Assembly: GCA_964016885.1 (NCBI GenBank) | Contig: OZ024740.1 | Location: 396,924,001 to 396,988,000 of the forward strand | Source: Eledone cirrhosa | Lineage: Eukaryota | DNA: 64,000 nt | Reading direction: 5' to 3' | Shown here: positions 2,299 through 64,000 of the stretch, in pieces | How positions within the stretch are numbered: the first letter of the stretch is position 1 | How the letters are laid out: each line of letters starts with the position of its first letter | Position numbers and translations under genes: made by a program | Notes under the pieces: model-generated | Database searches by the model: none | What the model was told of the DNA's origin: nothing | What the model saw: the letters and a program-made list of their open reading frames with translations, nothing else

Positions 2299-2333
<35 letters not shown>

Positions 2334-2441: not shown

Positions 2442-3023
2442 GTCTAGTGGTTTTGGAGAAAATCCTCTTTGTCTCGAGTTCCAACGTTACAAGTCTGTAT
2501 CATCTGCCTTCATTCTGTTTGCGCGTCCTTAGATTGGTCACTGGTTAGTGACATCATCATAGTTCTGATCACTGGAAGCAGCCCACTGACCACAAGGGTG
2601 TGAGCTGTCACTCACCCCGAGTCCCATCAGCAAAATTACTGCTGTGTGTACCCAAACTCACTACATGCAAAGACACTGATGGACACATACAGAATAGCTT
2701 GCATGCTTGCGTTCACACATGTACCCACAGAACCATATACACATATATATGTACACACACACATACACACAAATATACACATACATGCACACACACAGGC
2801 ACACACACGTGTATATACACATATATACACCCACCCACACACTCACATGCCTGTATAAATACATACACACACACACACACACGCATACACATACATACAT
2901 ATACACGCACACATATATAACCAGTGACCAATCTAAGGACGTGCAAACAGAATGAAGGCAGATGATACAGACTTGTAACGTTGGAACCCGGGATAAAGAG
3001 GATTTGCTCTGAAACCACTAGAC

Positions 3024-3112
3024 GTGTCTGAGGAACCTGTCAATCCAGAGTCAGGTTAGATCCACACACAGATCGAACCCCGAGCTGTTTGCCGGGGAAA
3101 CAATTGTAACAC
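3024..3112 (+). ncRNA. Type I hammerhead ribozyme candidate with expanded stem II domain
   Basis: gtgt-CTGAGGA(3028-3034)...GAAA(3097-3100)-caattg-TA-acac. Stem I gtgt/acac, palindromic stem III ACAATTGT. Confidence 0.6.
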
Positions 3113-3251
3113 AAAATAAATTGAGTTCTGATGCATCACTGATTCTTTGTTTTCCATTTCATCATACTCTGCTCCGTAGGAGCCTAGAGTGCTCAACTGG
3201 CATACCGCCTACGGACGCATCTTAGCTACCATAAGACATATATATATATAT

Positions 3252-3445
3252 ATAGGAAAAGAGTCAGGACTCTGATAGTGGAGCTCAAACCGTTTCGACA
3301 GCTAGTTCGGATCTAGCTGTCGAAACGGCTGGAGCACAGCCATCGAGGTCCTGACTCTTTTCCTATTACCCACTCTACTACCCTAAGTATCAAGTACTAT
3401 GGTGCATTATGGTCCACCTGGCTTCTTACAACACACTTTCTTCAT
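3252..3445 (+). mobile_element. Short fold-back element in (TA)n
   Basis: Hairpin 3252-3366 (ataggaaaagagtcaggac...gtcctgactcttttcctat) with apex gacagctag-ttcggat-ctagctgtc followed by GAAACGG. (TA)n flanks. Confidence 0.55.
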
Positions 3446-11078: not shown

Positions 11079-11114
11079 TCTTCTGATGAAGGACTAGCGT
11101 CCGAAACGTTAAGA
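11079..11114 (+). ncRNA. Minimal type I hammerhead ribozyme in the PLE 3' region
   Basis: tctt-CTGATGA-a-GGAC-tagc-GTCC-GAAA-CG-TT-aaga. All core residues present; stem I 4 bp, stem II 4 bp, palindromic ACGT stem III. Confidence 0.85.
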
Positions 11115-20641: not shown

Positions 20642-20732
20642 GCACATATCTGAGGAGTTTTAAATTCCAGAGTCAGGAATGAACATGATCATTCTTCGAG
20701 CTGATCAGCAGTGAAACATATGTATACGATGC
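20642..20732 (+). ncRNA. Degenerate expanded hammerhead, same family as 3024-3112
   Basis: CTGAGGA(20650)...ccagagtcagg...cgagctg...GAAA-catatg-TA, followed by gc-a-cactgattctttgtt as at 3133-3151. Stems I and II are poor. Confidence 0.4.
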
Positions 20733-21446: not shown

Positions 21447-21627
21447 AAATGGCTTCTAGAAGACTAGAACTGCTTCATTTGTATGAAATCATCAGGACAT
21501 TCCTGATGATTTCATACGAATGAAACAGTTCTAGTCCTGTAGAAGTCATTTCTATATGAAAGAAATATGTATCTTCTCTACTAAATTATTGAGTACCTTC
21601 AGAAAACCATTCTTAATTATACATATA
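21447..21627 (+). mobile_element. Fold-back element with hammerhead core on both arms
   Basis: 51-bp arms 21447-21497 / 21501-21551 with a 3-nt loop. CTGATGA at 21503-21509, ttc-atac-gaa stem II, GAAA at 21522-21525. Confidence 0.6.
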
Positions 21628-39103: not shown

Positions 39104-39374
39104 TATATATATATTTTTGTGTGTGTATATAACTTTCAGTTACTGGTAGTTCATCAGTTTGAGAATTCAATGCTCTTACGTGGATCTAATTGTCAATGTA
39201 GGATTCACTGTTTGTGCTGTCATCAGTTTTGGTACCCATAACAAGCAGAGCGTTAATAATAAGTAAATGGGAATGAAGTATCAGTTTAGCATCATATATA
39301 TATTTTATTCACTTGTGGTACATGTTTTTGAATTGATCAGCTCAAGGTATGATTTGTCATGATGAAGATATTAT

Positions 39375-39657
39375 TGGTGCCATAATGAAAAGCACCCAGT
39401 CCACTCTATGGAGTGGTAGTGATGGTGCCACAAGAAAAGCACCAAGTTCACTCAGTAAAGTATTAGAGATGGTGCTATAAGAAAAGCTTCCAGTACACAC
39501 TTTAATGTGGTTAATGTTAGGAAGGATATACAGCCATAGAAAACCATACCCCAAGCAGATCTGTATAAGCAAGACATGGTTACCTGTCCTGGCTAGCCTC
39601 ATAATGCCTCTAACCCATACAAGCATGGACAATTGATGTTAAACAGTGATGATGATG
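39375..39657 (+). mobile_element. RTE-tail-type fragment with 3 internal repeats
   Basis: Same unit and tail as 38690-39103. Confidence 0.65.
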
Positions 39658-44282: not shown

Positions 44283-44564
44283 ATTAAAGTTTTCACTCTG
44301 ACATAGCTGTACACATATATATATATGTATTTTGTATATCTAATGGTATATGGTATGTTTACATATAAACATTTGAAAGCCTTTCACTATGAATTTTGGA
44401 AGCTAATGGCTAGCGCCATCTAGTGGATTGGCGTTAGCCATCAGCTTCCAAAATTCATAGCGAAAGGCTTTCAAATGTTTATTTGTAAACATACCATATA
44501 TCATTAGATATACAAAATACACATACTTATATGTATACAGCTATGTTAGAGTGAAAACTTTAAT
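44283..44564. repeat. Long inverted repeat (136-bp arms, 10-nt loop)
   Basis: 44283-44418 vs 44429-44564, ending in (TA)n. Confidence 0.95.
44412..44426 (-). promoter_or_regulatory. CTCF consensus motif
   Basis: AGCGCCATCTAGTGG is the reverse complement of CCACTAGATGGCGCT, matching the core CCACYAGRKGGCRC. Confidence 0.5.
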
Positions 44565-44840: not shown

Positions 44841-47800
44841 CAGCAATCCAGCATGCAGCCATCCAGCATCCAGCATGCAGCCATCCAGCATCCAGCCATC
44901 CAGCATACAGCCATCCAGCATACAGCCATCCAGCATACAGCCATCCAGCATCCAGCATGCAGCCATCCAGCATCCAGCATACAGCCATCCAGCATACAGC
45001 CATCCAGCATACAGCCATCCAGCATCCAGCATGCAGCCATCCAGCCATCCAGCATACAGCCATCCAGCATACATCCATCCAGCATACAGCCATCCAGCAT
45101 CCAGCCATCCAGCATACAGCCATTCAGCATACAGCCATCCAGCATACAGCCATCCAGCATACAGCCATCCAGCATACAGCCATCCAGCATACAGCCATCC
45201 AGCATACAGCCATTCAGCATACAGCCATCCAGCATACAGCCATACAGCATACATCCATCCAGCATACAGCCATCCAGCATCCAGCCATCCAGCATACAGC
45301 CATTCAGCATACAGCCATCCAGCATACATCCATCCAGCATACAGCCATCCAGCATACAGCCATCCAGCATACATCCATCCAGCATACAGCCATCCAGCAT
45401 CCAGCCATCCAGCATACAGCCATTCAGCATACAGCCATCCAGCATACAGCCATCCAGCATACAGCCATCCAGCATACAGCCATCCAGCATACAGCCATCC
45501 AGCATACAGCCATCCAGCATCCAGCATACAGCCATCCAGCATACAGCCATCCAGCATCCAGCATACAGCCATCCAGCATACAGCATGCAGCCTTCCAGCA
45601 TCCAGCATACAGCCATCCAGCATCCAGCATACAGCCATCCAGCATACAGCCATCCAGCATACAGCATACAGCCATCCAGCATGCAGCCATCCAGCATGCA
45701 GCCATCCAGCATGCAGCCATCCAGCATACAGCCATCCAGCATACAGCATACAGCCATCCAGCATGCAGCCATCCAGCATGCAGCCATCCAGCATACAGCC
45801 ATCCAGCCATCCAGCATACAGCCATCCAGCATACAGCCATCCAGCATACAGCCATCCAGCATACAGCCATCCAGCCATCCAGCATACAGCCATCCAGCAT
45901 ACAGCCATCCAGCATACAGCCATCCAGCCATCCAGCATACAGCCATCCAGCATGCAGCCATCCAGCATACAGCATACAGCCATCCAGCATACAGCCATCC
46001 AGCATGCAGCCATCCAGCATACAGCCATCCAGCATACAGCCATCCAGCATACAGCCATCCAGCATACAGCCATCCAGCATGCAGCCATCCAGCATACAGC
46101 CATCCAGCATACAGCCATCCAGCATACAGCCATCCAGCATACAGCCATCCAGCATGCAGCCATCCAGCATACAGCCATCCAGCATACAGCCATCCAGCAT
46201 ACAGCCATCCAGCATGCAGCCATCCAGCATACAGCCATCCAGCATACAGCCATCCAGCATGCAGCCATCCAGCATGCAGCCATCCAGCATACAGCCATCC
46301 AGCATACAGCCATCCAGCATACAGCCATCCAGCATACAGCCATCCAGCATACAGCCATCCAGCATGCAGCCATCCAGCATACAGCCATCCAGCATGCAGC
46401 CATCCAGCATACAGCCATCCAGCATACAGCCATCCAGCATACAGCCATCCAGCATACAGCCATCCAGCATACAGCCATCCAGCATGCAGCCATCCAGCAT
46501 ACAGCCATCCAGCATACAGCCATCCAGCATACAGCCATCCAGCATACAGCCATCCAGCATACAGCCATCCAGCATGCAGCCATCCAGCATACAGCCATCC
46601 AGCATACAGCCATCCAGCATACAGCCATCCAGCATACAGCCATCCAGCATACAGCCATCCAGCATACAGCCATCCAGCATGCAGCCATCCAGCATACAGC
46701 CATCCAGCATACAGCCATCCAGCATACAGCCATCCAGCATGCAGCCATCCAGAATACAGCCATCCAGCATACAGCCATCCAGCCATCCAGCATACAGCCA
46801 TCCAGCATACAGCATACAGCCATCCAGCATACAGCATACAGCCATCCAGCCATCCAGCATACAGCCATCCAGCATGCAGCCATCCAGCATACAGCCATCC
46901 AGCATGCAGCCATCCAGCATACAGCCATCCAGCATACAGCCATACAGCCATCCAGCCATCCAGCATACAGCCATCCAGCCATCCAGCATACAGCCATCCA
47001 GCATACAGCCATCCAGCCATCCAGCATACAGCCATCCAGCATACAGCCATCCAGCCATCCAGCATACAGCCATCCAGCATACAGCCATCCAGCCATCCAG
47101 CATGCAGCCATCCAGCATACAGCCATCCAGCATGCAGCCATCCAGCATACAGCCATCCAGCATACAGCCATACAGCCATCCAGCCATCCAGCATACAGCC
47201 ATCCAGCCATCCAGCATACAGCCATCCAGCATACAGTCATCCAGCCATCCAGCATACAGCCATCCAGCATACAGCCATCCAGCATACAGCCATCCAGCCA
47301 TCCAGCATGCAGCCATCCAGCATACAGCCATCCAGCATACAGCCATCCAGCCATCCAGCATGCAGCCATCCAGCATGCAGCCATCCAGCATACAGCCATC
47401 CAGCATACAGCCATCCAGCCATCCAGCATGCAGCCATCCAGCATACAGCCATCCAGCATACAGCCATCCAGCATACAGCCATCCAGCCATCCAGCATACA
47501 GCCATCCAGCATACAGCCATCCAGCATACAGCCATCCAGCATACAGCCATCCAGCCATCCAGCATGCAGCCATCCAGCATACAGCCATCCAGCATACAGC
47601 CATCCAGCATGCAGCCATCCAGCATACAGCCATCCAGCATACAGCCATCCAGCATACAGCCATCCAGCCATCCAGCATACAGCCATCCAGCCATCCAGCA
47701 TACAGCCATCCAGCATACAGCCATCGAGCATACAGCCATACAGCCATACAGCCATCCAGCATACAGCCATCCAGCATACAGCCATCCAGCATACAGCCAT

Positions 47801-50800
47801 CCAGCATACAGCCATCCAGCCATCCAGCATGCAGCCATCCAGCATACAGCCATCCAGCATACAGCCATCCAGCATACAGCCATCCAGCCATCCAGCATGC
47901 AGCCATCCAGCATGCAGCCATCCAGCATACAGCCATCCAGCATACAGCCATCCAGCCATCCAGCATGCAGCCATCCAGCATACAGCCATCCAGCATACAG
48001 CCATCCAGCATACAGCCATCCAGCATACAGCCATCCAGCCATCCAGCATGCAGCCATCCAGCATACAGCCATCCAGCATACAGCCATCCAGCATACAGCC
48101 ATCCAGCATACAGCCATCCAGCATACAGCCATCCAGCATACAGCCATCCAGCATACAGCCATCCAGCATACAGCCATTCAGCATGCAGCCATTCAGCATG
48201 CAGCCATCCAGCATACAGCCATCCAGCCATCCAGCATACAGCCATCCAGCATACAGCCATCCAGCATACAGCCATCCAGCATACAGCCATCCAGCCATCC
48301 AGCATACAGCCATCCAGCCATACAGCCATCCAGCATACAGCCATCCAGCCATCCAGCATGCAGCCATCCAGCATACAGCCATCCAGCATACAGCCATCCA
48401 GCCATCCAGCATACAGCCATCCAGCATACAGCCATCCAGCATACAGCCATCCAGCCATCCAGCATACAGCCATCCAGCATACAGCCATCCAGCATACAGC
48501 CATCCAGCATACAGCCATCCAGCCATCCAGCATACAGCCATCCAGCATACAGCCATCCAGCATACAACCATCCAGCATACAGCCATCCAGCATGCAGCAT
48601 ACAGCCATCCAGCATACAGCCATCCAGCCATCCAGCATACAGCCATCCAGCATACAGCCATCCAGCATACAGCCATCCAGCATACAGCCATCCAGCCATC
48701 CAGCATACAGCCATCCAGCATACAGCCATCCAGCCATCCAGCATGCAGCCATCCAGCATACAGCCATCCAGCATACAGCCATCCAGCCATCCAGCATGCA
48801 GCCATCCAGCATACAGCCATCCAGCCATCCAGCATACAGCCATCCAGCATACAGCCATCCAGCCATCCAGCATGCAGCCATCCAGCATACAGCCATCCAG
48901 CATACAGCCATCCAGCCATCCAGCATACAGCCATCCAGCATACAGCCATCCAGCATACAGCCATCCAGCATACAGCCATCCAGCCAACCAGCATACAGCC
49001 ATCCAGCATACAGCCATCCAGCATACAGCCATCCAGCATACAGCCATCCAGCCATCCAGCATGCAGCCATCCAGCATACAGCCATCCAGCCATCCAGCAT
49101 ACAGCCATCCAGCATACAGCCATCCAGCATACAGCCATCCAGCATACAGCCATCCAGCCATCCAGCATGCAGCCATCCAGCATACAGCCATCCAGCATGC
49201 AGCCATCCAGCCATCCAGCATACAGCCATCCAGCATACAGCCATCCAGCATACAGCCATCCAGCATGCAGCCATCCAGCATGCAGCCATCCAGCATACAG
49301 CCATCCAGCATACAGCCATCCAGCATACAGCCATCCAGCATACAGCCATCCAGCATACAGCCATCCAGCATGCAGCCAACCAGCCATCCAGCCAACCAGC
49401 CATCCAGCATACAGCCATCCAGCATACAGCCATCCAGCATACAGCCATCCAGCATACAGCCATCCAGCATACAGCCATCCAGCATGCAGCCATCCAGCCA
49501 TCCAGCATACAGCCATCCAGCATACAGCCATCCAGCATACAGCCATCCAGCCATCCAGCATACAGCCATCCAGCATACAGCCATCCAGCATACAGCCATC
49601 CAGCATACAGCCATCCAGCATGCAGCCATCCAGCCATCCAGCATACAGCCATCCAGCATACAGCCATCCAGCATACAGCCATCCAGCATACAGCCATCCA
49701 GCATACAGCATACAGCCATCCAGCATACAGCATACAGCCATCCAGCATGCAGCATACAGCCATCCAGCATACAGCCATCCAGCATACAGCATACAGCCAT
49801 CCAGCATACAGCATACAGCCATCCAGCATACAGCATACAGCCATCCAGCATACAGCCATCCAGCATACAGCCATCCAGCATACAGCATACAGCCATCCAG
49901 CATACAGCATACAGCCATCCAGCATACAGCCATCCAGCATACAGCCATACAGCATCCAGCCATCCAGCATACAGCCATCCAGCATACAGCCATCCATCAT
50001 GCAGCCATCCAGCATCCAGCCATCCAGCATACAGCCATCCAGCATACAGCCATCCAGCATCCAGCCATCCAGCATACAGCCATCCAGCATACAGCATACA
50101 GCCATCCAGCATACAGCCATCCAGCATACAGCATACAGCCATCCAGCATGCAGCATCCAGCCATACAACATACAGCCATCCAGCATACAGCCATCCAGCA
50201 TACAGCCATCCAGCATCCAGCCATCCAGCATGCAGCCATCCAGCATACAGCATACAGCCATCCAGCATACAGCATACAGCCATCCAGCATACAGCCATCC
50301 AGCATACAGCCATACAGCATCCAGCCATCCAGCATACAGCCATCCAGCATACAGCCATCCAGCCATCCAGCATACAGCCATCCAGCATACAGCCATCCAG
50401 CATACAGCCATCCAGCATACAGCCATCCAGCATACAGCCATCCAGCATACAGCGATACAGCCATCCAGCATACAGCCATCCAGCATACAGCCATCCAGCA
50501 TACAGCCATCCAGCATACAGCCATCCAGCATACAGCCATTCAGCATACAGCCATCCAGCATACAGCCATACAGCATACAGCCATCCAGCATACAGCCATC
50601 CAGCATACAGCCATCCAGCATACAGCCATCCAGCATACAGCGATACAGCCATCCAGCATACAGCCATCCAGCATACAGCCATCCAGCATACAGCCATCCA
50701 GCATACAGCCATCCAGCATACAGCCATTCAGCATACAGCCATCCAGCATACAGCCATACAGCATACAGCCATCCAGCATACAGCCATCCAGCATACAGCC

Positions 50801-53800
50801 ATCCAGCATGCAGCCATCCAGCATACAGCCATCCAGCATGCAGCCATCCAGCATACAGCCATCCAGCATGCAGCCATCCAGCATACAGCCATCCAGCATG
50901 CAGCCATCCAGCATACAGCCATCCAGCATACAGCCATTCAGCATCCAGCATGCAGCCATCCAGCATGCAGCCATCCAGCATACAGCCATCCAGCATACAG
51001 CCATCCAGCATACAGCCATTCAGCATCCAGCCATCCAGCATACAGCCATCCAGCATACAGCCATCCAGCCATCCAGCATGCAGCCATCCAGCATACAGCC
51101 ATCCAGCATACAGCCATCCAGCATGCAGCCATCCAGCATACAGCCATCCAGCATGCAGCCATCCAGCATACAGCCATCCAGCATACAGCTATTCAGCATA
51201 CAGCCATCCAGCATACAGCCATCCAGCATACAACCATCCAGCATACAGCCATTCAGCATACAGCCATCCAGCATACAGCCATCCAGCATACAACCATCCA
51301 GCATACAGCCATTCAGCATACAGCCATCCAGCATACAGCCATCCAGCATACAGCCATCCAGCATACAGCCATCCAGCATACAACCATCCAGCATACAGCC
51401 ATCCAGCATACAGCCATCCAGCATACAGCCATCCAGCATACAGCCATCCAGCATACAGCCATCCAGCATACAGCCATTCAGCATACAGCCATCCAGCATA
51501 CAGCCATTCAGCATACAGCCATCCAGCATACAGCCATCCAGCATACAGCCATCCAGCATACAGCCAACCAGCATACAGCCATCCAGCATACAGCCATCCA
51601 GCATACAGCCATCCAGCATACAGCCAACCAGCATACAGCCATCCAGCATACAGCCATCCAGCATACAGCCATTCAGCATGCAGCCATCCAGCATACAGCC
51701 ATCCAGCATACAGCCATCCAGCATACAGCCATCCAGCATACAGCCATCCAGCATACAGCATACAGCCATCCAGCATACAGCCATCCAGCATACAGCCATT
51801 CAGCATGCAGCCATCCAGCATACAGCCATCCAGCATACAGCCATCCAGCATACAGCCATCCAGCATACAGCCATCCAGCATACAGCCATCCAGCATACAG
51901 CCATTCAGCATGCAGCCATCCAGCATACAGCCATCCAGCATACAGCCATCCAGCATACAGCCATCCAGCATACAGCCATCCAGCATACAGCCATCCAGCA
52001 TACAGCCATCCAGCATACAGCCATCCAGCATACAGCCATCCAGCATACAGCCATCCAGCATGCAGCCATCCAGCATACAGCCATCCAGCATACAGCCATC
52101 CAGCATACAGCCATTCAGCATGCAGCCATCCAGCATACAGCCATCCAGCATACAGCCATCCAGCATACAGCCATACAGCCATCCAGCATACAGCCATCCA
52201 GCATACAGCCATTCAGCATACAGCCATCCAGCATACAGCCATCCAGCATGCAGCCATCCAGCATACAGCCATCCAGCATACAGCCATCAAGCATACAGCC
52301 ATCCAGCATACAGCCATCCAGCATACAGCCATTCAGCATACAGCCATCCAGCATACAGCCATCCAGCATGCAGCCATCCAGCATACAGCCATCCAGCATA
52401 CAGCCATCCAGCATACAGCCATCAAGCATACAGCCATCCAGCCATCCAGCATACAGCCATCCAGCATGCAGCCATCCAGCATACAGCCATCCAGCATACA
52501 GCCATCCAGCATACAGCCATCCAGCATGCAGCCATCCAGCATACAGCCATCCAGCATACAGCCATCCAGCATACAGCCATCCAGCATGCAGCCATCCAGC
52601 ATACAGCCATCCAGCATACAGCCATCCAGCATACAGCCATCCAGCATGCAGCCATCCAGCATACAGCCATCCAGCATACAGCCATCCAGCATGCAGCCAT
52701 CCAGCATACAGCCATACAGCCATCCAGCATACAGCCATCCAGCATACAGCCATCCAGCATACAGCCATCCAGCATACAGCCATTCAGCAAACAGCCATAC
52801 AGCCATCCAGCATCCAGCCATTCAGCATACAGCCATCCAGCATACAGCCATCCAGCATACAGCCATTCAGCAAACAGCCATACAGCCATCCAGCATACAG
52901 CCATCCAGCATACAGCCATTCAGCATACAGCCATCCAGCATACAGCCATCCAGCATACAGCATGCAGCATACAGCCATACAGCCATCCAGCATACAGCCA
53001 TCCAGCATACAGCCATCCAGCATACAGCCATCCAGCATACAGCCATCCAGCATACAGCCATCCAGCATACAGCCATCCAGCATACAGCCATTCAGCAAAC
53101 AGCCATACAGCCATCCAGCATACAGCCATCCAGCATACAGCCATCCAGCATCCAGCCATTCAGCATACAGCCATCCAGCATACAGCCATTCAGCAAACAG
53201 CCATACAGCCATCCAGCATACAGCCATCCAGCATACAGCCATTCAGCATACAGCCATCCAGCATACAGCCATCCAGCCTACAGCCATCCAGCATCCAGCC
53301 ATCCAGCATACAGCCATCCAGCATCCAGCCATTCAGCATACAGCCATCCAGCATACAGCCATTCAGCAAACAGCCATACAGCCATCCAGCATACAGCCAT
53401 CCAGCATACAGCCATTCAGCATACAGCCATCCAGCATACAGCCATCCAGCATACAGCCATCCAGCATACAGCCATTCAGCATACAGCCATCCAGCATACA
53501 GCCATTCAGCAAACAGCCATACAGCCATCCAGCATACAGCCATCCAGCATACAGCCATTCAGCATACAGCCATCCAGCATACAGCCATCCAGCATACAGC
53601 CATCCAGCATACAGCCATCCAGCATGCAGCCATCCAGCATACAGCCATCCAGCATACAGCCATCCAGCATGCAGCCATCCAGCATACAGCCATCCAGCAT
53701 GCAGCCATCCAGCATACAGCCATCCAGCATACAGCTATTCAGCATACAGCCATCCAGCATACAGCCATCCAGCATACAACCATCCAGCATACAGCCATTC

Positions 53801-56800
53801 AGCATACAGCCATCCAGCATACAGCCATCCAGCATACAACCATCCAGCATACAGCCATTCAGCATACAGCCATCCAGCATACAGCCATCCAGCATACAGC
53901 CATCCAGCATACAGCCATCCAGCATACAACCATCCAGCATACAGCCATCCAGCATACAGCCATCCAGCATACAGCCATCCAGCATACAGCCATCCAGCAT
54001 ACAGCCATCCAGCATACAGCCATTCAGCATACAGCCATCCAGCATACAGCCATTCAGCATACAGCCATCCAGCATACAGCCATCCAGCATACAGCCATCC
54101 AGCATACAGCCAACCAGCATACAGCCATCCAGCATACAGCCATCCAGCATACAGCCATCCAGCATACAGCCAACCAGCATACAGCCATCCAGCATACAGC
54201 CATCCAGCATACAGCCATTCAGCATGCAGCCATCCAGCATACAGCCATCCAGCATACAGCCATCCAGCATACAGCCATCCAGCATACAGCCATCCAGCAT
54301 ACAGCATACAGCCATCCAGCATACAGCCATCCAGCATACAGCCATTCAGCATGCAGCCATCCAGCATACAGCCATCCAGCATACAGCCATCCAGCATACA
54401 GCCATCCAGCATACAGCCATCCAGCATACAGCCATCCAGCATACAGCCATTCAGCATGCAGCCATCCAGCATACAGCCATCCAGCATACAGCCATCCAGC
54501 ATACAGCCATCCAGCATACAGCCATCCAGCATACAGCCATCCAGCATACAGCCATCCAGCATACAGCCATCCAGCATACAGCCATCCAGCATACAGCCAT
54601 CCAGCATGCAGCCATCCAGCATACAGCCATCCAGCATACAGCCATCCAGCATACAGCCATTCAGCATGCAGCCATCCAGCATACAGCCATCCAGCATACA
54701 GCCATCCAGCATACAGCCATACAGCCATCCAGCATACAGCCATCCAGCATACAGCCATTCAGCATACAGCCATCCAGCATACAGCCATCCAGCATGCAGC
54801 CATCCAGCATACAGCCATCCAGCATACAGCCATCAAGCATACAGCCATCCAGCATACAGCCATCCAGCATACAGCCATTCAGCATACAGCCATCCAGCAT
54901 ACAGCCATCCAGCATGCAGCCATCCAGCATACAGCCATCCAGCATACAGCCATCCAGCATACAGCCATCAAGCATACAGCCATCCAGCCATCCAGCATAC
55001 AGCCATCCAGCATGCAGCCATCCAGCATACAGCCATCCAGCATACAGCCATCCAGCATACAGCCATCCAGCATGCAGCCATCCAGCATACAGCCATCCAG
55101 CATACAGCCATCCAGCATACAGCCATCCAGCATGCAGCCATCCAGCATACAGCCATCCAGCATACAGCCATCCAGCATACAGCCATCCAGCATGCAGCCA
55201 TCCAGCATACAGCCATCCAGCATACAGCCATCCAGCATACAGCCATCCAGCATGCAGCCATCCAGCATACAGCCATCCAGCATACAGCCATCCAGCATGC
55301 AGCCATCCAGCATACAGCCATACAGCCATCCAGCATACAGCCATCCAGCATACAGCCATCCAGCATACAGCCATCCAGCATACAGCCATTCAGCAAACAG
55401 CCATACAGCCATCCAGCATCCAGCCATTCAGCATACAGCCATCCAGCATACAGCCATCCAGCATACAGCCATTCAGCAAACAGCCATACAGCCATCCAGC
55501 ATACAGCCATCCAGCATACAGCCATTCAGCATACAGCCATCCAGCATACAGCCATCCAGCATACAGCATGCAGCATACAGCCATACAGCCATCCAGCATA
55601 CAGCCATCCAGCATACAGCCATCCAGCATACAGCCATCCAGCATACAGCCATCCAGCATACAGCCATCCAGCATACAGCCATCCAGCATACAGCCATTCA
55701 GCAAACAGCCATACAGCCATCCAGCATACAGCCATCCAGCATACAGCCATCCAGCATCCAGCCATTCAGCATACAGCCATCCAGCATACAGCCATTCAGC
55801 AAACAGCCATACAGCCATCCAGCATACAGCCATCCAGCATACAGCCATTCAGCATACAGCCATCCAGCATACAGCCATCCAGCATACAGCCATCCAGCAT
55901 CCAGCCATCCAGCATACAGCCATCCAGCATCCAGCCATTCAGCATACAGCCATCCAGCATACAGCCATTCAGCAAACAGCCATACAGCCATCCAGCATAC
56001 AGCCATCCAGCATACAGCCATTCAGCATACAGCCATCCAGCATACAGCCATCCAGCATACAGCCATCCAGCATACAGCCATTCAGCATACAGCCATCCAG
56101 CATACAGCCATTCAGCAAACAGCCATACAGCCATCCAGCATACAGCCATCCAGCATACAGCCATTCAGCATACAGCCATCCAGCATACAGCCATCCAGCA
56201 TACAGCCATCCAGCATACAGCCATCCAGCATACAGCCATCCAGCATACAGCCATCCAGCATACAGCCATCCAGCATACAGCCATTCAGCAAACAGCCATA
56301 CAGCCATCCAGCATACAGCCATCCAGCATACAGCCATCCAGCATCCAGCCATTCAGCATACAGCCATCCAGCATACAGCCATTCAGCAAACAGCCATACA
56401 GCCATCCAGCATACAGCCATCCAGCATACAGCCATTCAGCATACAGCCATCCAGCATACAGCCATCCAGCATACAGCCATCCAGCATCCAGCCATCCAGC
56501 ATACAGCCATCCAGCATCCAGCCATTCAGCATACAGCCATCCAGCATACAGCCATTCAGCAAACAGCCATACAGCCATCCAGCATACAGCCATCCAGCAT
56601 ACAGCCATTCAGCATACAGCCATCCAGCATACAGCCATCCAGCATACAGCCATCCAGCATCCAGCCATTCAGCATACAGCCATCCAGCATACAGCCATTC
56701 AGCAAACAGCCATACAGCCATCCAGCATACAGCCATCCAGCATACAGCCATTCAGCATACAGCCATCCAGCATACAGCCATCCAGCATACAGCCATCCAG

Positions 56801-59800
56801 CATACAGCCATTCAGCATACAGCCATCCAGCATACAGCCATCCAGCATACAGCCATCCAGCATACAGCCATTCAGCATACAGCCATCCAGCATACAGCCA
56901 TCCAGCATACAGCCATCCAGCATACAGCCATCCAGCATACAGCCATCCAGCATACAGCCATCCAGCATACAGCCATTCAGCATACAGCCATCCAGCATAC
57001 AGCCATTCAGCATACAGCCATTCAGCATACAGCCATCCAGCATCCAGCATACAGCCATCCAGCATACAGCATACAGCCATCCAGCATACAGCCATCCAGC
57101 ATACAGCATACAGCCATCCAGCATACAGCCATCCAGCATACAGCCATCCAGCATACAGCCATCCAGCATACAGCCATTCAGCATACAGCCATCCAGCATA
57201 CAGCCATCCAGCATACAGCCACCCAGCATACAGCCATCCAGCATACAGCCATTCAGCATACAGCCATCCAGCCATCCAGCATACAGCCATTCAGCAAACA
57301 GCCATACAGCCATCCAGCATACAGCCATCCAGCATCCAGCCATTCAGCATACAGCCATCCAGCATACAGCCATTCAGCAAACAGCCATACAGCCATCCAG
57401 CATACAGCCATCCAGCATACAGCCATCCAGCATACAGCATGCAGCATACAGCCATACAGACATCCAGCATACAGCCATCCAGCCATACAGCATACAGCCA
57501 TCCATCATACAGCCATTCAGCCATACAGCATACAGCCATCCAGCATACAGCCATCCAGCATACAGCCATTCAGCCATACAGCATACAGCCATCCAGCATA
57601 CAGCCATTCAGCCAAACAGCATACAGCCATCTCAGCATACAGCCATTCAGCATAAGCAATAAGCATACAGCATACAGCATCAGCATACAGCCATTCAGCA
57701 TACAGCCATCAGCATAGCCATCCAGCATACGCCATGCATAAGCCATACCAGCATACAGAGCCATACAGCCATACAGCCATCCAGCATACAGCCATCCAGC
57801 ATACAGCCATCCAGCATACAGCCATCCAGCATACAGCCATTCAGCATACAGCCATACAGCCATACAGCCATCCAGCATACAGCCATCCAGCATACAGCCA
57901 TCCAGCATACAGCCATCCAGCATACAACCATTCAGCATACAGCCATCCAGCATACAGCCATCCAGCATACAGCCATTCAGCAAACAGCCATACAGCCATC
58001 CAGCATACAGCCATCCAGCATACAGCCATTCAGCATACAGCCATCCAGCATACAGCCATCCAGCATACAGCATGCAGCATACAGCCATACAGCCATCCAG
58101 CATACAGCCATCCAGCCATCCAGCATACAGCCATCCAGCATACAGCCATTCAGCCATACAGCATACAGCCATCCAGCATACAGCCATCCAGCATACAGCC
58201 ATCCAGCATACAGCCATACAGCATACAGCCATCCAGCATACAGCCATCCAGCATACAGCATGCAGCATACAGCCATCCAGCATACAGCCATTCAGCATAC
58301 AGCCATCCAGCATACAGCCATCCAGCATACAGCATGCAGCATACAGCCATCCAGCCATCCAGCATACATCCATTCAGCATACAGCCATCCAGCATACAAC
58401 CATCCAGCATACATCCATTCAGCATACAGCCATCCAGCATACAGCCATCCAGCATACAGCCATCCAGCATACAGCATGCAGCATACAGCCATACAGCCAT
58501 CCAGCATACAGCCATTCAGCATACAGCCATCCAGCATACAGCCATCCAGCATACAGCCATCCAGCATACAGCCATCCAGCATACAGCATGCAGCATACAG
58601 CCATCCAGCATACAGCCATCCAGCATACATCCATTCAGCATACAGCCATCCAGCATACAGCCATCCAGCATACAGCCATCCAGCATACAGCATGCAGCAT
58701 ACAGCCATACAGCCATCCAGCATACAGCCATCCAGCATACAGCCATCCAGCATACAGCCATCCAGCATACAGCATGCAGCATACAGCCATACAGCCATCC
58801 AGCATACAGCCATTCAGCATACAGCCATCCAGCATACAGCCATCCAGCATACAGCATGCAGCATACAGCTATCCAGCATACAGCCATCCAGCATACAGCC
58901 ATCCAGCATACAGCATGCAGCATACAGCCATCCAGCATACAGCCATCCAGCATACAGCCATCCAGCATACAGCCATCCAGCATACAGCCATCCAGCATAC
59001 AGCCATCCAGCATACAGCCATTCAGCATACAGCCATCCAGCATACAGCCATCCAGCATACAGCCATCCAGCATACAGCCATCCAGCATATAGCCATCCAG
59101 CATACATCCATTCAGCATACAGCCATCCAGCATACAGCCATCCAGCATACAGCCATCCAGCATACAGCCATCCAGCATGCAGCCATCCAGCATACATCCA
59201 TTCAGCATACAGCCATCCAGCATACAGCCATCCAGCATACAGCCATCCAGCATACAGCATGCAGCATACAGCCATACAGCCATCCAGCATACAGCCATTC
59301 AGCATACAGCCATCCAGCATACAGCCATTCAGCATACAGCCATCCAGCATACAGCCATCCAGCATACAGCCATTCAGCATACAGCCATACAGCATACAGC
59401 CATTCAGCATACAGCCATCCAGCATCCAGCCATCCAGCATACAGCCATCCAGCATACAGCCATCCAGCATACAGCCATCCAGCATACAGCCATCCAGCAT
59501 ACAGCCATCCAGCATACAGCCATTCAGCATGCAGCCATCCAGCATACAGCCATCCAGCATACAGCCATCCAGCATACAGCCATTCAGCATACAGCCATTC
59601 AGCATACAGCCATCCAGCATACAGCCATCCAGCATACAGCCATTCAGCATACAGCCATCCAGCCATCCAGCATACAGCCATCCAGCATACAGCCATCCAG
59701 CATACAGCCATCCAGCATACAGCCATCCAGCATACAGCCATTCAGCATACAGCCATCCAGCATACAGCCATTCAGCATACAGCCATCCAGCATACAGCCA

Positions 59801-62800
59801 TCCAGCATACAGCCATCCAGCATACAGCCATTCAGCATACAGCCATCCAGCATACAGCCATTCAGCATACAGCCATCCAGCATACAGCCATCCACCATAC
59901 AGCCATCCAGCATACAGCCATTCAGCATACAGCCATCCAGCCATCCAGCATACAGCCATCCAGCATACAGCCATCCAGCATACAGGCATTCAGCATACAG
60001 CCATCCAGCATACAGCCATCCAGCATACAGCCATCCAGCATACAGCCATTCAGCATACAGCCATCCAGCCATCCAGCATACAGCCATCCAGCATACAGCC
60101 ATCCAGCATACAGCCATCCAGCATACAGCCATCCAGCATACAGCCATCCAGCATACAGCATACAGCCATACAGCATACAGCCATCCAGCATACAGCATAC
60201 AGCCATCCAGCATACAGCCATCCAGCATACAGCATACAGCCATCCAGCATACAGCCATCCAGCATACAGCCATCCAGCATACAGCCATCCAGCATACAGC
60301 CATTCAGCATACAGCCATCCAGCATACAGCCATCCAGCATACAGCGATCCAGCATGCAGCCATCCAGCATACAGCCATCCAGCATACAGCCATCCAGCAT
60401 ACAGCCATCCAGCATACAGCCATCCAGCATACAGCCATCCAGCATACAGCCATCCAGCATACAGCATACAGCCATACAGCATACAGCCATCCAGCATACA
60501 GCATACAGCCATCCAGCATACAGCCATCCAGCATACAGCATACAGCCATCCAGCATACAGCCATCCAGCATACAGCCATCCAGCATACAGCCATTCAGCA
60601 TACAGCCATTCAGCATGCAGCCATCCAGCATGCAGCCATCCAGCATACAGCCATCCAGCATACAGCCATCCAGCATACAGCCATCCAGCATACAGCCATC
60701 CAGCATACAGCCATCCAGCATACAGCCATCCAGCATACAGCCATCCAGCATACAGCCATCCAGCATACAGCCATCCAGCATACAGCCATCCAGCATACAG
60801 CCATCCAGCATACAGCCATCCAGCATACAGCCATTCAGCATACAGCCATTTAGCATACAGCCATCCAGCATACAGCCATCCAGCATACAGCCATCCAGCA
60901 TACAGCCATCCAGCATACAGCCATCCAGCATACAGCATACAGCCATACAGCATACAGCCATCCAGCATACAGCATACAGCCATCCAGCATACAGCCATCC
61001 AGCATACAGCATACAGCCATCCAGCATACAGCCATTCAGCATACAGCCATACAGCATACAGCCATTCAGCATACAGCCTTCCAGCATACAGCCATCCAGC
61101 ATACAGCCATACAGCATACAGCCATCCAGCATACAGCCATCCAGCATCCAGCCATCCAGCATACAGCCATCCAGCATACAGCATACAGCCATCCAGCATA
61201 CAGCCATTCAGCATACAGCCATACAGCATACAGCCATTCAGCATACAGCCATCCAGCCATCCAGCATACAGCCATCCAGCATACAGCCATACAGCATACA
61301 GCCATCCAGCATACAGCCATCCAGCATACAGCCATTCAGCATACAGCCATCCAGCATACAGCATACAGCCATCCAGCATACAGCCATTCAGCATACAGCC
61401 ATACAGCATACAGCCATTCAGCATACAGCCATCCAGCCATCCAGCATACAGCCATCCAGCATACAGCCATACAGCATACAGCCATCCAGCATACAGCCAT
61501 CCAGCCATCCAGCATACAGCCATCCAGCATACAGCCATCCAGCATACAGCATACAGCCATCCAGCATACAGCCATCCAGCATACAGCCATCCAGCATACA
61601 GCATACAGCCATACAGCATACAGCCATCCAGCATACAGCATACAGCCATCCAGCATACAGCCATCCAGCATACAGCATACAGCCATCCAGCATACAGCCA
61701 TTCAGCATACAGCCATACAGCATACAGCCATTCAGCATACAGCCATACAGCATACAGCCATCCAGCATACAGCCATACAGCATACAGCCATCCAGCATAC
61801 AGCCATCCAGCATACAGCCATTCAGCATACAGCCATCCAGCATACAGCCATTCAGCATACAGCCATCCAGCATAGATCCATCCAGCATGCAGCATACAGC
61901 CATCCAGCATGCAGCATACAGCCATACAGCCATCCAGCATACAGCCATCCAGCATACAGCATACAGCCATCCAGCATACAGCCATCCAGCATACAGCCAT
62001 TCAGCATACAACCATCCAGCATACAGCCATCCAGCATGCAGCCATACAGCATACAGCCATTCAGCATACAACCATCCAGCATACAGCCATCCAGCATGCA
62101 GCCATCCAGCATACAGCCATCCAGCATACAGCCATCCAGCATACAGCCATACAGCCATCCAGCATACAGCCATTCAGCATACAGCCATACAGCATACAGC
62201 CATCCAGCATACAGCCATCCAGCATACAGCCATTCAGCATACAGCCATCCAGCATACAGCCATTCAGCATACAGCCATCCAGCATACAGCCATACAGCAT
62301 ACAGCCATCCAGCATACAGCCATCCAGCATACAGCATACAGCCATACAGCCATCCAGCATACAGCCATCCAGCATACAGCCATCCAGCATACAGCCATAC
62401 AGCATACAGCCATCCAGCATACAGCCATCCAGCATACAGCATACAGCCATCCAGCATACAGCCATCCAGCATACAGCCATCCAGCATACAGCATACAGCC
62501 ATCCAGCATACAGCCATCCAGCATACAGCCATACAGCATACAGCCATACAGCCATCCAGCCATACAGCCATCCAGCGAGCATCCAACCATCCAGCCATCC
62601 AGCATACAGCCATCCAGCATACAGCCATACAGCATACAGCCATCCAGCATACAGCCATCCAGCATACAGCATACAGCCATACAGCCATCCAGCATACAGC
62701 CATCCAGCATACAGCCATCCAGCATACAGCCATCCAGCATACAGCCATCCAGCATACAGCATACAGCCATCCAGCATACAGCCATCCAGCATACAGCATA

Positions 62801-64000
62801 CAGCCATCCAGCATCCAGCCATCCAGCATACAGCCATGCAGCCATCCAGCATACAGCCATTCAGCATACAGCCATCCACCATACAGCCATCCAGCATCCA
62901 GCCATACAGCATACAGCCATACAGCCATACAGCCATTCAGCATACAGCCATCCAGCATACAGCCATCCAGCATACAGCCATACAGCCATCCAGCATACAG
63001 CCAGCATCCAGCCATCCAGCCATCCAGCATACAGCCATCCAGCATACAGCCATCCAGCATACAGCCATACAGCCATTCAGCATACAGCCATCCAGAATAC
63101 AGCCATCCAGCATCCAGCCATACAGCATACAGCCATACAGCCATACAGCCATTCAGCATACAGCCATCCAGCATACAGCCATCCAGCATACAGCCATACA
63201 GCCATCCAGCATACAGCCAGCATCCAGCCATCCAGCCATCCAGCATACAGCCATCCAGCATACAGCCATCCAGCATACAGCCATCCAGCATCCAGCCATA
63301 CAGCATCCAGCCATCCAGCATATAGCCATCCAGCATACAGCCATTCAGCATACAGCCATCCAGCATACAGCCATCCAGCATACAGCCATACAGCCATCCA
63401 GCATACAGCCATCCAGCATACAGCCATCCAGCATCCAGCCATCCAGCATACAGCATACAGCCATCCAGCATACAGCCATCCAGCATGCAGCCATCCAGCA
63501 TACAGCCATCCAGCATACAGCCATCCAGCATCCAGCCATCCAGCATCCAGCCATCCAGCATACAGCCATACAGCATACAGCCATCCAGCATACAGCCATC
63601 CAGCATACAGCAATCCAGCATACAGCCATCCAGCATACAGCATACAGCCATCCAGCATACAGCCATACAGCATACAGCCATCCAGCATACAGCCATCCAG
63701 CATACAGCCATACAGCATACAGCCATCCAGCATACAGCCATCCAGCATACAGCCATCCAGCATACAGCCATCCAGCATACAGCCATCCAGCATACAGCCA
63801 TCCAGCATACAGCAATCCAGCATACAGCCATCCAGCATACAGCATCAAGCCATCCAGCATGCAGCCATCCAGCATGCAGCCATACAGCATACAGCCATCC
63901 AGCATGCAGCCATACAGCATACAGCCATCCAGCATACAGCCATCCAGCATACAGCCATCCAGCATACAGCCATCCAGCATACAGCAATCCAGCATACAGC
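44841..64000. repeat. 15-bp satellite array (CAGCCATCCAGCATA)n, >19 kb, runs off the window
   Basis: Alternating 8-mer CAGCCATC and 7-mer CAGCATA with recurrent variants (CATG, CATT, CAAA, extra 7- or 8-mers). Confidence 0.98.

Follow-up and report, generated by a model that had tools for sequence, protein, structure and literature searches.

Within a 64,000-nt stretch of the Eledone cirrhosa genome (contig OZ024740.1, positions 396,924,001–396,988,000; hereafter 'the window'), the segment around positions 3024–3112 is best read as the decayed, inverted end of a Hydra-clade Penelope-like retroelement (PLE), bearing a predicted dimer-type hammerhead ribozyme with a stem II that would form one long hairpin and with a fixed internal loop that likely serves as a protein dock. 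We hold this reading, taken as a whole, with good confidence. Judged from sequence comparison, the motif is a genuine and abundant structural variant, new within an established ribozyme type and an established class of elements. Table 1 lists the features of the locus and of the remainder of the window.

Table 1. Features of the hammerhead-bearing locus and other features of the window (positions are those of the window).
Feature	Position	Strand	Remark
(AT)n target run, left	2303–2328		
Main 5'-truncated copy of element 3' end	2329–2917	−	Ends in (TA)n without tail
Pseudo-LTR (pLTR) arm	2329–2547	−	94% complementary to 2918–3136
Second hammerhead copy, core box 1 to predicted cut	2437 to 2357	−	Descriptor scan
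Microsatellite-rich 3' region	2548–2917	−	Matches region upstream of pLTR in other copies
Inverted 5'-truncated pseudo-LTR bearing the hammerhead	2918–3160	+	
CCAAT box	2928–2932	+	Adjoins TGACGTCA-like word in family; most of 30 aligned copies
Stem I, 5' strand	3022–3027	+	6 bp in subfamily, 4 bp in window copy
GTGT of stem I	3024–3027	+	Sequence
Core box 1, CUGANGA (CTGAGGA)	3028–3034	+	Sequence
62-nt insert between boxes (long stem II)	3035–3096	+	Sequence and family fold
Stem II helices	3035–3038/3093–3096, 3039–3043/3088–3092	+	Then 2-nt bulge
Stem II helices past bulge	3046–3048/3085–3087, internal loop, 3053–3056/3077–3080, 3057–3062/3071–3076	+	8-nt end loop
Internal loop, 5' strand, AGUC	3049–3052	+	Same majority letters in 7–8 of 8 subfamilies
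Internal loop, 3' strand, YGAG	3081–3084	+	GAG majority in 8/8 subfamilies
Core box 2, GAAA	3097–3100	+	Sequence
Palindrome CAATTG	3101–3106	+	Stem III = 3100–3107; sequence
TA	3107–3108	+	Part of GUA triplet; predicted cut after A3108; sequence
Stem I, 3' strand, ACAC	3109–3112	+	To 3114 in subfamily
AATAAA, poly(A)-signal-like word	3115–3120	+	Shortly after predicted cut site
77-nt tail (start of element 5' UTR)	3161–3237	+	One arm only
(AT)n target run, right	3238–3253	+	
Subfamily B copy	20650–20724	+	56-nt insert; stem I 3' strand deleted; 60 bits
Decayed inverted pair, other family, short stem II	1340–1397 with 1448–1511	− with +	
Short-stem-II hammerhead-like motif	11083–11110	+	
Short-stem-II hammerhead-like motif	21503–21530	+	
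Weak match to 3' half of long-stem hammerhead	39280–39460	−	Without first box
136-bp inverted repeat	44283–44564		93% complementary, 10-nt spacer
15-bp satellite	44860–64000		1,316 copies, 88% matches, runs off window end

The ribozyme motif and its core

The motif is, by its sequence features, a type I, dimer-type hammerhead and a predicted self-cutter. All type I core positions are present (C3-U4-G5-A6-N7-G8-A9, G12-A13-A14, A15.1-U16.1, and H17; 3028–3034, 3097–3100, and 3107–3108), three helices surround the core with stem I open, and stems I, II, and III all covary among 80 aligned genomic copies. In stem I, five of the six pairs have changes on both sides and 80% of cells are paired. With a strict descriptor, the window's first 44.8 kb contains three motifs; 100 dinucleotide-shuffled versions average 0.02. 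The sequence-only reading, made on the window before this analysis, had placed GTGT, CTGAGGA, the 62 nt, GAAA, CAATTG, TA, ACAC, CCTG (3036–3039), CGGG (3093–3096), and CAGGTT (3052–3057) exactly where we find them. It had also noted an inverted copy at 2353–2441 that keeps the core; that copy indeed retains both core boxes, on arms that are 94% complementary, and it (2357–2437) scores 85 bits with a covariance model that was built including it.

The standard G10.1-C11.1 first pair of stem II is replaced by A.G in the window copy. G-C occupies this position in 17 of 80 copies and a non-standard pair in 39, and core U4 is C in 17 of the 80. According to the literature on natural hammerheads, a U.U first pair occurs naturally and G10.1-C11.1 is not strictly required, and both a non-standard first pair and U4C are natural variants that go with slow cleavage (PMC3088659). 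A U.U first pair is common among Hydra elements. The CCGA core variant (U4C) is fixed in several long and short subfamilies (L019, L097, L118, L175, L171, and L122).

The palindrome is predicted to form an 8-bp self-duplex (−6.4 kcal/mol). Stem III loops read AATT in 38 copies, ATAT in 13, GCGC in 8, and GATT in 5 of 80, while the inner palindrome pairs are kept in 78 and 72 of 80 copies, double changes among them. Such retention through loop changes is not required by a hairpin within one molecule, and a self-complementary stem III/loop III maintained despite sequence change is characteristic of the dimer type. Covariation of the palindrome, which had been suspected from a diverged relative near 20650, is thus real at the level of the family (AATT, ATAT, GCGC, and GATT loops in 80 copies). 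The relative itself is a true member of subfamily B (20650–20724, 60 bits) that has lost 19 nt with the 3' strand of stem I.

An Rfam scan of the window returned no hammerhead at E ≤ 5, so the expectation that standard short-stem models would miss the motif holds for Rfam.

Downstream of the cut site, 74 of 95 copies have AATAAA or ATTAAA within 25 nt, mostly at a distance of 6–8 nt (69/95); on the opposite strand, 3 of 95 do. The same poly(A)-signal-like word also follows several short-insert hammerhead families. Our literature search found no paper linking such a word with pLTR hammerheads.

The locus and its element

Flanked by (TA)n runs, the insertion at this locus is inverted, 5'-truncated, and without an ORF. 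Its right part (2918–3237) abuts the truncation point of the minus-strand copy and has a single-sided tail, as in inverted 5'-truncated PLEs; the same layout is drawn for PLE insertions in Fig. 2 of PMC8557442, with a tail shorter than that in the window. The stretch at 2548–2917 is matched by one genomic copy (L097) over all 370 nt, and independent contigs end in microsatellite at about 3158 and 3238. At another locus (L121) the tail continues, and an ORF starts 45 nt further on, ~175 nt past the predicted cut; in the window there is no ORF remnant of the element. Divergence between the two arms is 6%; in a read-through transcript they are predicted to form a 219-bp fold-back in which the entire ribozyme is base-paired to its antisense copy. 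Having no ORF, six private changes (see below), and a ribozyme buried in this predicted fold-back, the window locus itself is probably dead. The CCAAT box and the adjoining TGACGTCA-like word could possibly act as an internal promoter.

In the tail at 3161–3237 and those of five other copies (L177, L184, L166, L171, and L201), a hairpin is conserved; its GAGUGCUCA word hardly changes in any subfamily, although its inner part varies in length, and GAGUGCUC is self-complementary with two wobbles. The tail may be a start or binding signal for the reverse transcriptase (RT).

Among three widely spaced inverted pairs examined for coding capacity, one (L032) encloses a decayed RT followed by a GIY-YIG-type endonuclease, and among twenty further loci around RT matches the link to the pLTR recurs in L118, L120, L121, and L126. 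Relative to ORFs for RT with a C-terminal GIY-YIG endonuclease, the pLTR can be downstream, upstream, or alongside in inverted orientation (L032, L118, L120, L121, and L126), the ORFs of L032, L120, and L121 being decayed; the family thus has the hammerhead in a pseudo-LTR flanking an RT and GIY-YIG ORF that typifies endonuclease-bearing (EN+) PLEs. Read by eye, the proteins carry RMRW and DKT in place of DKG (L117, L118, L120, L121, and L131) and a CNCxxxxxC linker with CxLC..E..N..CRH (L118 and L120), and lack CCHH. RMRW/RWK-like, DKT, CxCx5C, and CxxC..E..N..CxH motifs define the Hydra clade (PMC8557442, section 11). Insertion into (TA)n, typical of Hydra elements, is seen at both ends of the window locus, and most family copies end in (TA)n. 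The element is, from these protein motifs, assigned to the Hydra-clade PLEs; the assignment depends on visual reading of the motifs, since Pfam named none of its proteins. Of 26 protein matches, the one named homologue comes from Argonauta hians. The Naiad clade (N-terminal GIY-YIG, without a canonical hammerhead) is excluded since the endonuclease is C-terminal, and a non-LTR retrozyme is rejected, the locus having two head-to-head copies and no head-to-tail array.

Across 23 long loci no intact ORF is linked to a long-stem copy, and the intact ORFs seen carry a 26-nt insert. These belong to a young Hydra-type family (L114:2192–4861, L115, L122, L123, and L132) with open frames of 772–890 residues and its 26-nt-insert hammerhead ~1.2 kb downstream of the ORF; L132 is a head-to-head pair of ORFs.

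A genome-wide family

The pattern that defines the family (both core boxes plus a GAGUY word) has 9,607 matches in the 3.0-Gb genome searched, versus 225 for a reversed control. Of the first 100 matches listed, 83 were family members by eye, which puts the family at roughly 8,000 copies. The 243 nt around the motif yielded 2,477 genomic candidates at a first look, 40 of them scored at 82–100%.

For alignment, copies were filtered for both boxes, a 50–66-nt insert, and an AGUC-like word, so that conservation of the boxes and of AGUC within the aligned set is partly built in. We aligned 80 of 93 distinct copies; the 13 omitted by eye, mostly deletion copies or near-duplicates, include the window copy at 20650. 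Eight mutually related subfamilies were assigned by eye, for which the tree requires no more than the minimum of seven changes; subfamilies A and G are not single clades, and H is nested within A.

Free of this filter, in two sets of 30 copies chosen by BLAST alone, 25 and 20 copies, respectively, retain both boxes intact. The earlier reading had named a lack of core-box conservation above the flanks among its grounds for refutation; between subfamilies A and B the boxes agree at 7/7 and 10/12 positions, against 14/25 upstream and 33/45 downstream, with 44/62 in the insert. Within a subfamily, core and insert decay about evenly (0.976 vs 0.949 in A and 0.942 vs 0.952 in B), as expected for dead copies. 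The window copy departs from the majority of 30 family copies at 3040, 3041, 3058, 3076, 3080, and 3090, and its letters at these six insert positions are minority letters in independent contigs (one sample).

Two further candidates were set aside. A short 29-nt form of subfamily G, considered as an ancestor family, proved to be a single deletion copy (one match), and a loose long-insert pattern (45,935 matches vs 6,040 in the control) was swamped by other repeats. Metagenome and viral contigs, collections poor in animal DNA, gave 28 and 1 pattern matches, respectively, and the covariance model scored none of them (highest value 15.5 bits, E 0.11).

Other hammerhead-like motifs abound in the genome. 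A pattern with 6–36 nt between the boxes has 160,999 matches (25,891 in the control) that were not filtered for structure, and the first 100 listed are mostly recurring hairpin-bearing families, many in inverted pairs; for Xenopus, ~9,000 motifs were called remarkable (PMC4209133). A second long-insert lineage (L084, L085, L088, L080, and L081, around position 1500) has 48–59-nt inserts, a stem III loop CATG, and a base of 5 bp; its conserved internal loop, RCUC opposite AAAA, differs from that of the present family.

Stem II as one long hairpin

Covariation shows the insert to have, as its predicted family fold, a single interrupted hairpin of ~22 bp in five segments. The base of the arm comprises four pairs, the fourth being a mismatch in 63 of 80 copies, followed by five pairs, a 2–3-nt bulge, and three pairs. 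The AGUC/YGAG internal loop (8 bases) then sits 12 bp from the core; within it UC and GA can pair, with Y bulging, and about 10 further pairs lie beyond. RNAalifold, unprompted, recovers 13 of the stem II pairs of our model from the 80 copies, 11 of them with double changes. For the whole model (30 cis pairs and 2 palindrome pairs), 82.6% of cells are paired versus 71.4% in shuffles, and the covariation score is 0.357 versus 0.175, with none of 500 shuffles as high and slid controls at 0.05–0.13. Taken alone, the stem II helices have double changes in 10/12 and 8/10 pairs. On the tree, eight compensatory inner-branch double changes fall on the 30 model pairs, against 0.012 per pair over 4,626 others, and never more than one falls on any single model pair.

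Subfamily majorities exchange whole pairs: 3039/3092 is G-C, U-G, U-A, A-U, or C-G, and subfamily D turns CAG/CUG into UGG/CCA. Paired columns vary between subfamilies and the internal loop does not. For AGUC, conservation is to be read with the caveat that copies were partly selected on an AGUC-like word; the GAG of the opposite strand was part of no selection filter. Insert length, too, is confined to 57–63 nt in all 80 aligned copies, narrower than the filter permitted (50–66). When copies are folded singly, the long hairpin is not dominant in subfamilies C, D, F, and G (probability of helix IIc 0.08–0.27), whose copies are decayed.

These results bear out the earlier proposal that dimer-type PLE hammerheads with an enlarged stem II make up a family, and they correct its details. 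The suggested 'active' pairing of 3036–3039 with 3093–3096 was off by one: those pairs score 0.243 and the same pairs slid by one column 0.637, the family register being 3035–3038/3093–3096. The covariation check it had proposed on collected genomic copies did find covariation, which supports one long hairpin rather than three separate ones.

Alternative folds of the insert

The three-hairpin insert of the sequence-only reading is indeed the predicted minimum-energy fold of the window copy (−23.3 vs −17.8 kcal/mol for the long hairpin), and its remark that no stem II closes is correct for that decayed copy, not for the family, which covaries as one hairpin; family-wide, a multi-hairpin domain finds no support. 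The three-hairpin fold wins in the window copy, by 5.5 kcal/mol, because of the six copy-specific substitutions, and the perfect 'ccccg' hairpin depends on the private C3080. Its middle hairpin is the tip of the long hairpin.

A toggle between this fold, as an inactive state, and an active stem II, gating cleavage, would gain from the prediction that three hairpins sequester core bases A9 and G12 and from the behaviour of subfamily A, in which the alternative is 98% and 88% pairable and is favoured or tied in 8 of 28 copies; in an undecayed A copy (L007) the long hairpin (−23.6 kcal/mol) barely leads the alternative (−22.0 kcal/mol). Undecayed A copies are thus predicted, by energy modelling, to be nearly bistable. 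The alternative arises there because ACCU occurs twice in subfamily A. Across the family it is fully pairable in only one of eight subfamilies and 33–75% pairable in the other seven, where its first hairpin has a mean probability of 0.00–0.02, and subfamily H (L175) has lost it (−6.1 vs −23.2 kcal/mol for the long hairpin) and kept the long hairpin through compensatory changes. Nor does it covary: the three hairpins score 0.180 versus 0.179 in shuffles, and inner branches carry no double change over the 11 pairs of the two switch hairpins or the four pairs of the alternative register. An RNA switch calls for two exclusive folds that both covary, and here one does. From the lack of three-hairpin covariation, the fit to one of eight subfamilies, and the private substitutions of the window copy, a switch is therefore unlikely, the toggle in this form decidedly so, and the conformational gate does not stand as a conserved family feature.

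More improbable still is a pairing of the loop's conserved UCRG with the core CUGA that keeps the monomer off. Over six pairs, 91.5% of cells are pairable, and the predicted probability reaches 0.21–0.25 in subfamilies F and G; in the other six it is ≤0.04, covariation is absent (0.151 vs 0.150), and 16 cells are broken at U4 although a compensating G was free to occur. A pairing of GAGUCAG with a downstream CUGAUUC was rejected: it fits A, A2, and B, and subfamilies D, F, and G have no such downstream word. Counting both kinds together, we would be surprised to find a switch here.

Possible role of the arm and its fixed loop

Given one long hairpin as the family fold, what is known of other PLE hammerheads suggests a mechanism. 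The two hammerheads on a tandem pLTR-ORF-pLTR transcript would pair via the 8-nt palindrome, and cleavage after GUA by the upstream one, ~175 nt before the start codon, would set the 5' end of the element RNA. The downstream one would often stay uncut, because integrated copies hold 50–130 nt beyond the cut site, and the uncut RNA would be what is inserted. The AGUC/YGAG loop, 12 bp out on a stiff arm, would bind the RT-endonuclease of the element—the weakest step of the scheme—and docking would make cutting protein-assisted, offsetting the weak first pair (A.G in the window copy).

Published work offers precedents: such hammerheads act as slow dimers in tandem transcripts (PMC4209133 and PMC6765202), and the PLE hammerhead tested in PMC11167929 cuts only with the protein of its element, the uncut RNA being the insertion template. 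Cutting upstream of an ORF can also promote cap-independent translation in viruses (PMC13725137), which is, by analogy, a possible further use here.

Protein-binding sites often take the form of a fixed purine-rich loop carried by an arm that is stiff and variable. By that analogy, we regard the AGUC/YGAG loop as a candidate docking site for the element's own protein, a proposal to which we give somewhat less than an even chance. To our knowledge, no protein-binding site has been described for PLE hammerheads. The stronger version, in which stem II holds a dedicated protein-binding domain and RT docking licenses cutting, would make this a natural protein-gated (allosteric) hammerhead, to which subfamily A may add a near-isoenergetic off-fold; we consider that version doubtful.

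It is about equally doubtful that the arm is a mere structural spacer whose loop is fixed by shared descent or by constraint at the DNA level. Sister families in the same genome do use 11–36-nt inserts, including the youngest intact family seen (26 nt), the second long-insert lineage (48–59 nt) has a different loop, and core and insert decay about evenly within a subfamily. Yet the loop is unchanged on branches where neighbouring paired columns changed repeatedly (the subfamily D branch has 0.75 changes per column), and the narrow range of insert lengths given above also speaks against a free spacer.

Somewhat less probable than either is an RNA–RNA tertiary contact of the fixed loop with stem I, the partner hammerhead, or the tail, giving a protein-free active fold. 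Natural hammerheads employ contacts between stems I and II (PMC4209133 and PMC3088659), every subfamily has the bulge and loop at constant distances from the core, and the conserved tail words ACUCUG and GCUCA are complements of CAGAGU and YGAGC. The tail, however, stays ACUCUG when stem II becomes UGGAGU or AAGAGU, without compensatory change; subfamilies A, A2, B, and H place a C opposite GCUCA; and stem I is only 3–6 bp long and freely variable in sequence. Loop–tail pairing as a switch was likewise rejected, as it does not covary.

Comparison with known systems

Hydra-clade PLEs, including Hydra-1_Obim of Octopus bimaculoides, share with the Eledone elements the C-terminal GIY-YIG, the RMRW/DKT, CxCx5C, and CxxC/CxH motifs, (TA)n targets, the inverted 5'-truncated copy with a one-sided tail, and a type I hammerhead near the 3' end with a palindromic stem III and, often, a non-standard first stem II pair (Craig et al. 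2021, PMC8557442). The hammerheads in File S2 of that paper have at most 26 nt between the boxes (7 bp and an 8-nt loop in stem II of Hydra-1_Obim), whereas the Eledone family has a covarying hairpin of 57–63 nt with a fixed loop. The tail is 77 nt in the window locus versus 30–40 nt in the Hydra PLEs described there, and the Eledone elements, with their long microsatellite-rich 3' regions, exceed the <3 kb given for Hydra (PMC8557442).

The minimal and atypical PLE hammerheads of metazoans described by Cervera and de la Pena (2014, PMC4209133) are likewise type I, with a short palindromic helix III implying dimers, a helix II longer than canonical, opposite-strand pairs 100–700 bp apart, and mostly truncated elements. 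Their helix II is 6–8 bp long, often after a bulged base, whereas here it comprises ~22 bp in a covarying register without a bulged base. The PAc hammerhead of the Anolis Poseidon element also lies in a pLTR, with uncut RNA being inserted, and its tail, defined by internal RT start sites, resembles that of the Eledone element (PMC11167929). PAc belongs to another clade and its ORF starts inside stem II, whereas the start codon here lies ~175 nt after the cut; protein assistance has been shown for PAc and would be presumed for the Eledone hammerhead (PMC11167929). Animal non-LTR retrozymes share a non-coding nature, a type I hammerhead, and a relationship to PLEs (bioRxiv 10.64898/2026.07.22.740005; PMC7229834); retrozymes are head-to-tail arrays, whereas the window locus retains a coding element as a truncated, head-to-head stub (bioRxiv 10.64898/2026.07.22.740005).

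Long inserts as such are already on record. PLE-X1_sMoe and PLE-X1_sTam of spike mosses, marked non-canonical in File S2 of PMC8557442, also have ~50 nt between the boxes, in the form of a 4–9-bp stem with an open loop of 29–34 nt; they are unrelated plant elements, for which that source reports neither covariation nor a fixed motif. A search of mainly open-access literature turned up no PLE or cephalopod hammerhead whose stem II is both long and structured. Within the literature searched, then, what is new is the structured 57–63-nt stem II with its fixed loop.

Implications

One published search limited the spacer between the boxes to 7–17 nt (PMC8557442). Thousands of hammerhead-like motifs in a single animal genome escape both Rfam and published spacer limits; because such searches pass over long arms, hammerheads of this kind may be present in some elements reported to lack them. 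A candidate protein site, a fixed 8-base loop on a varying arm, emerges from natural variation among the eight subfamilies, and sister families of the same genome, with inserts of 11–36 nt, serve as controls.
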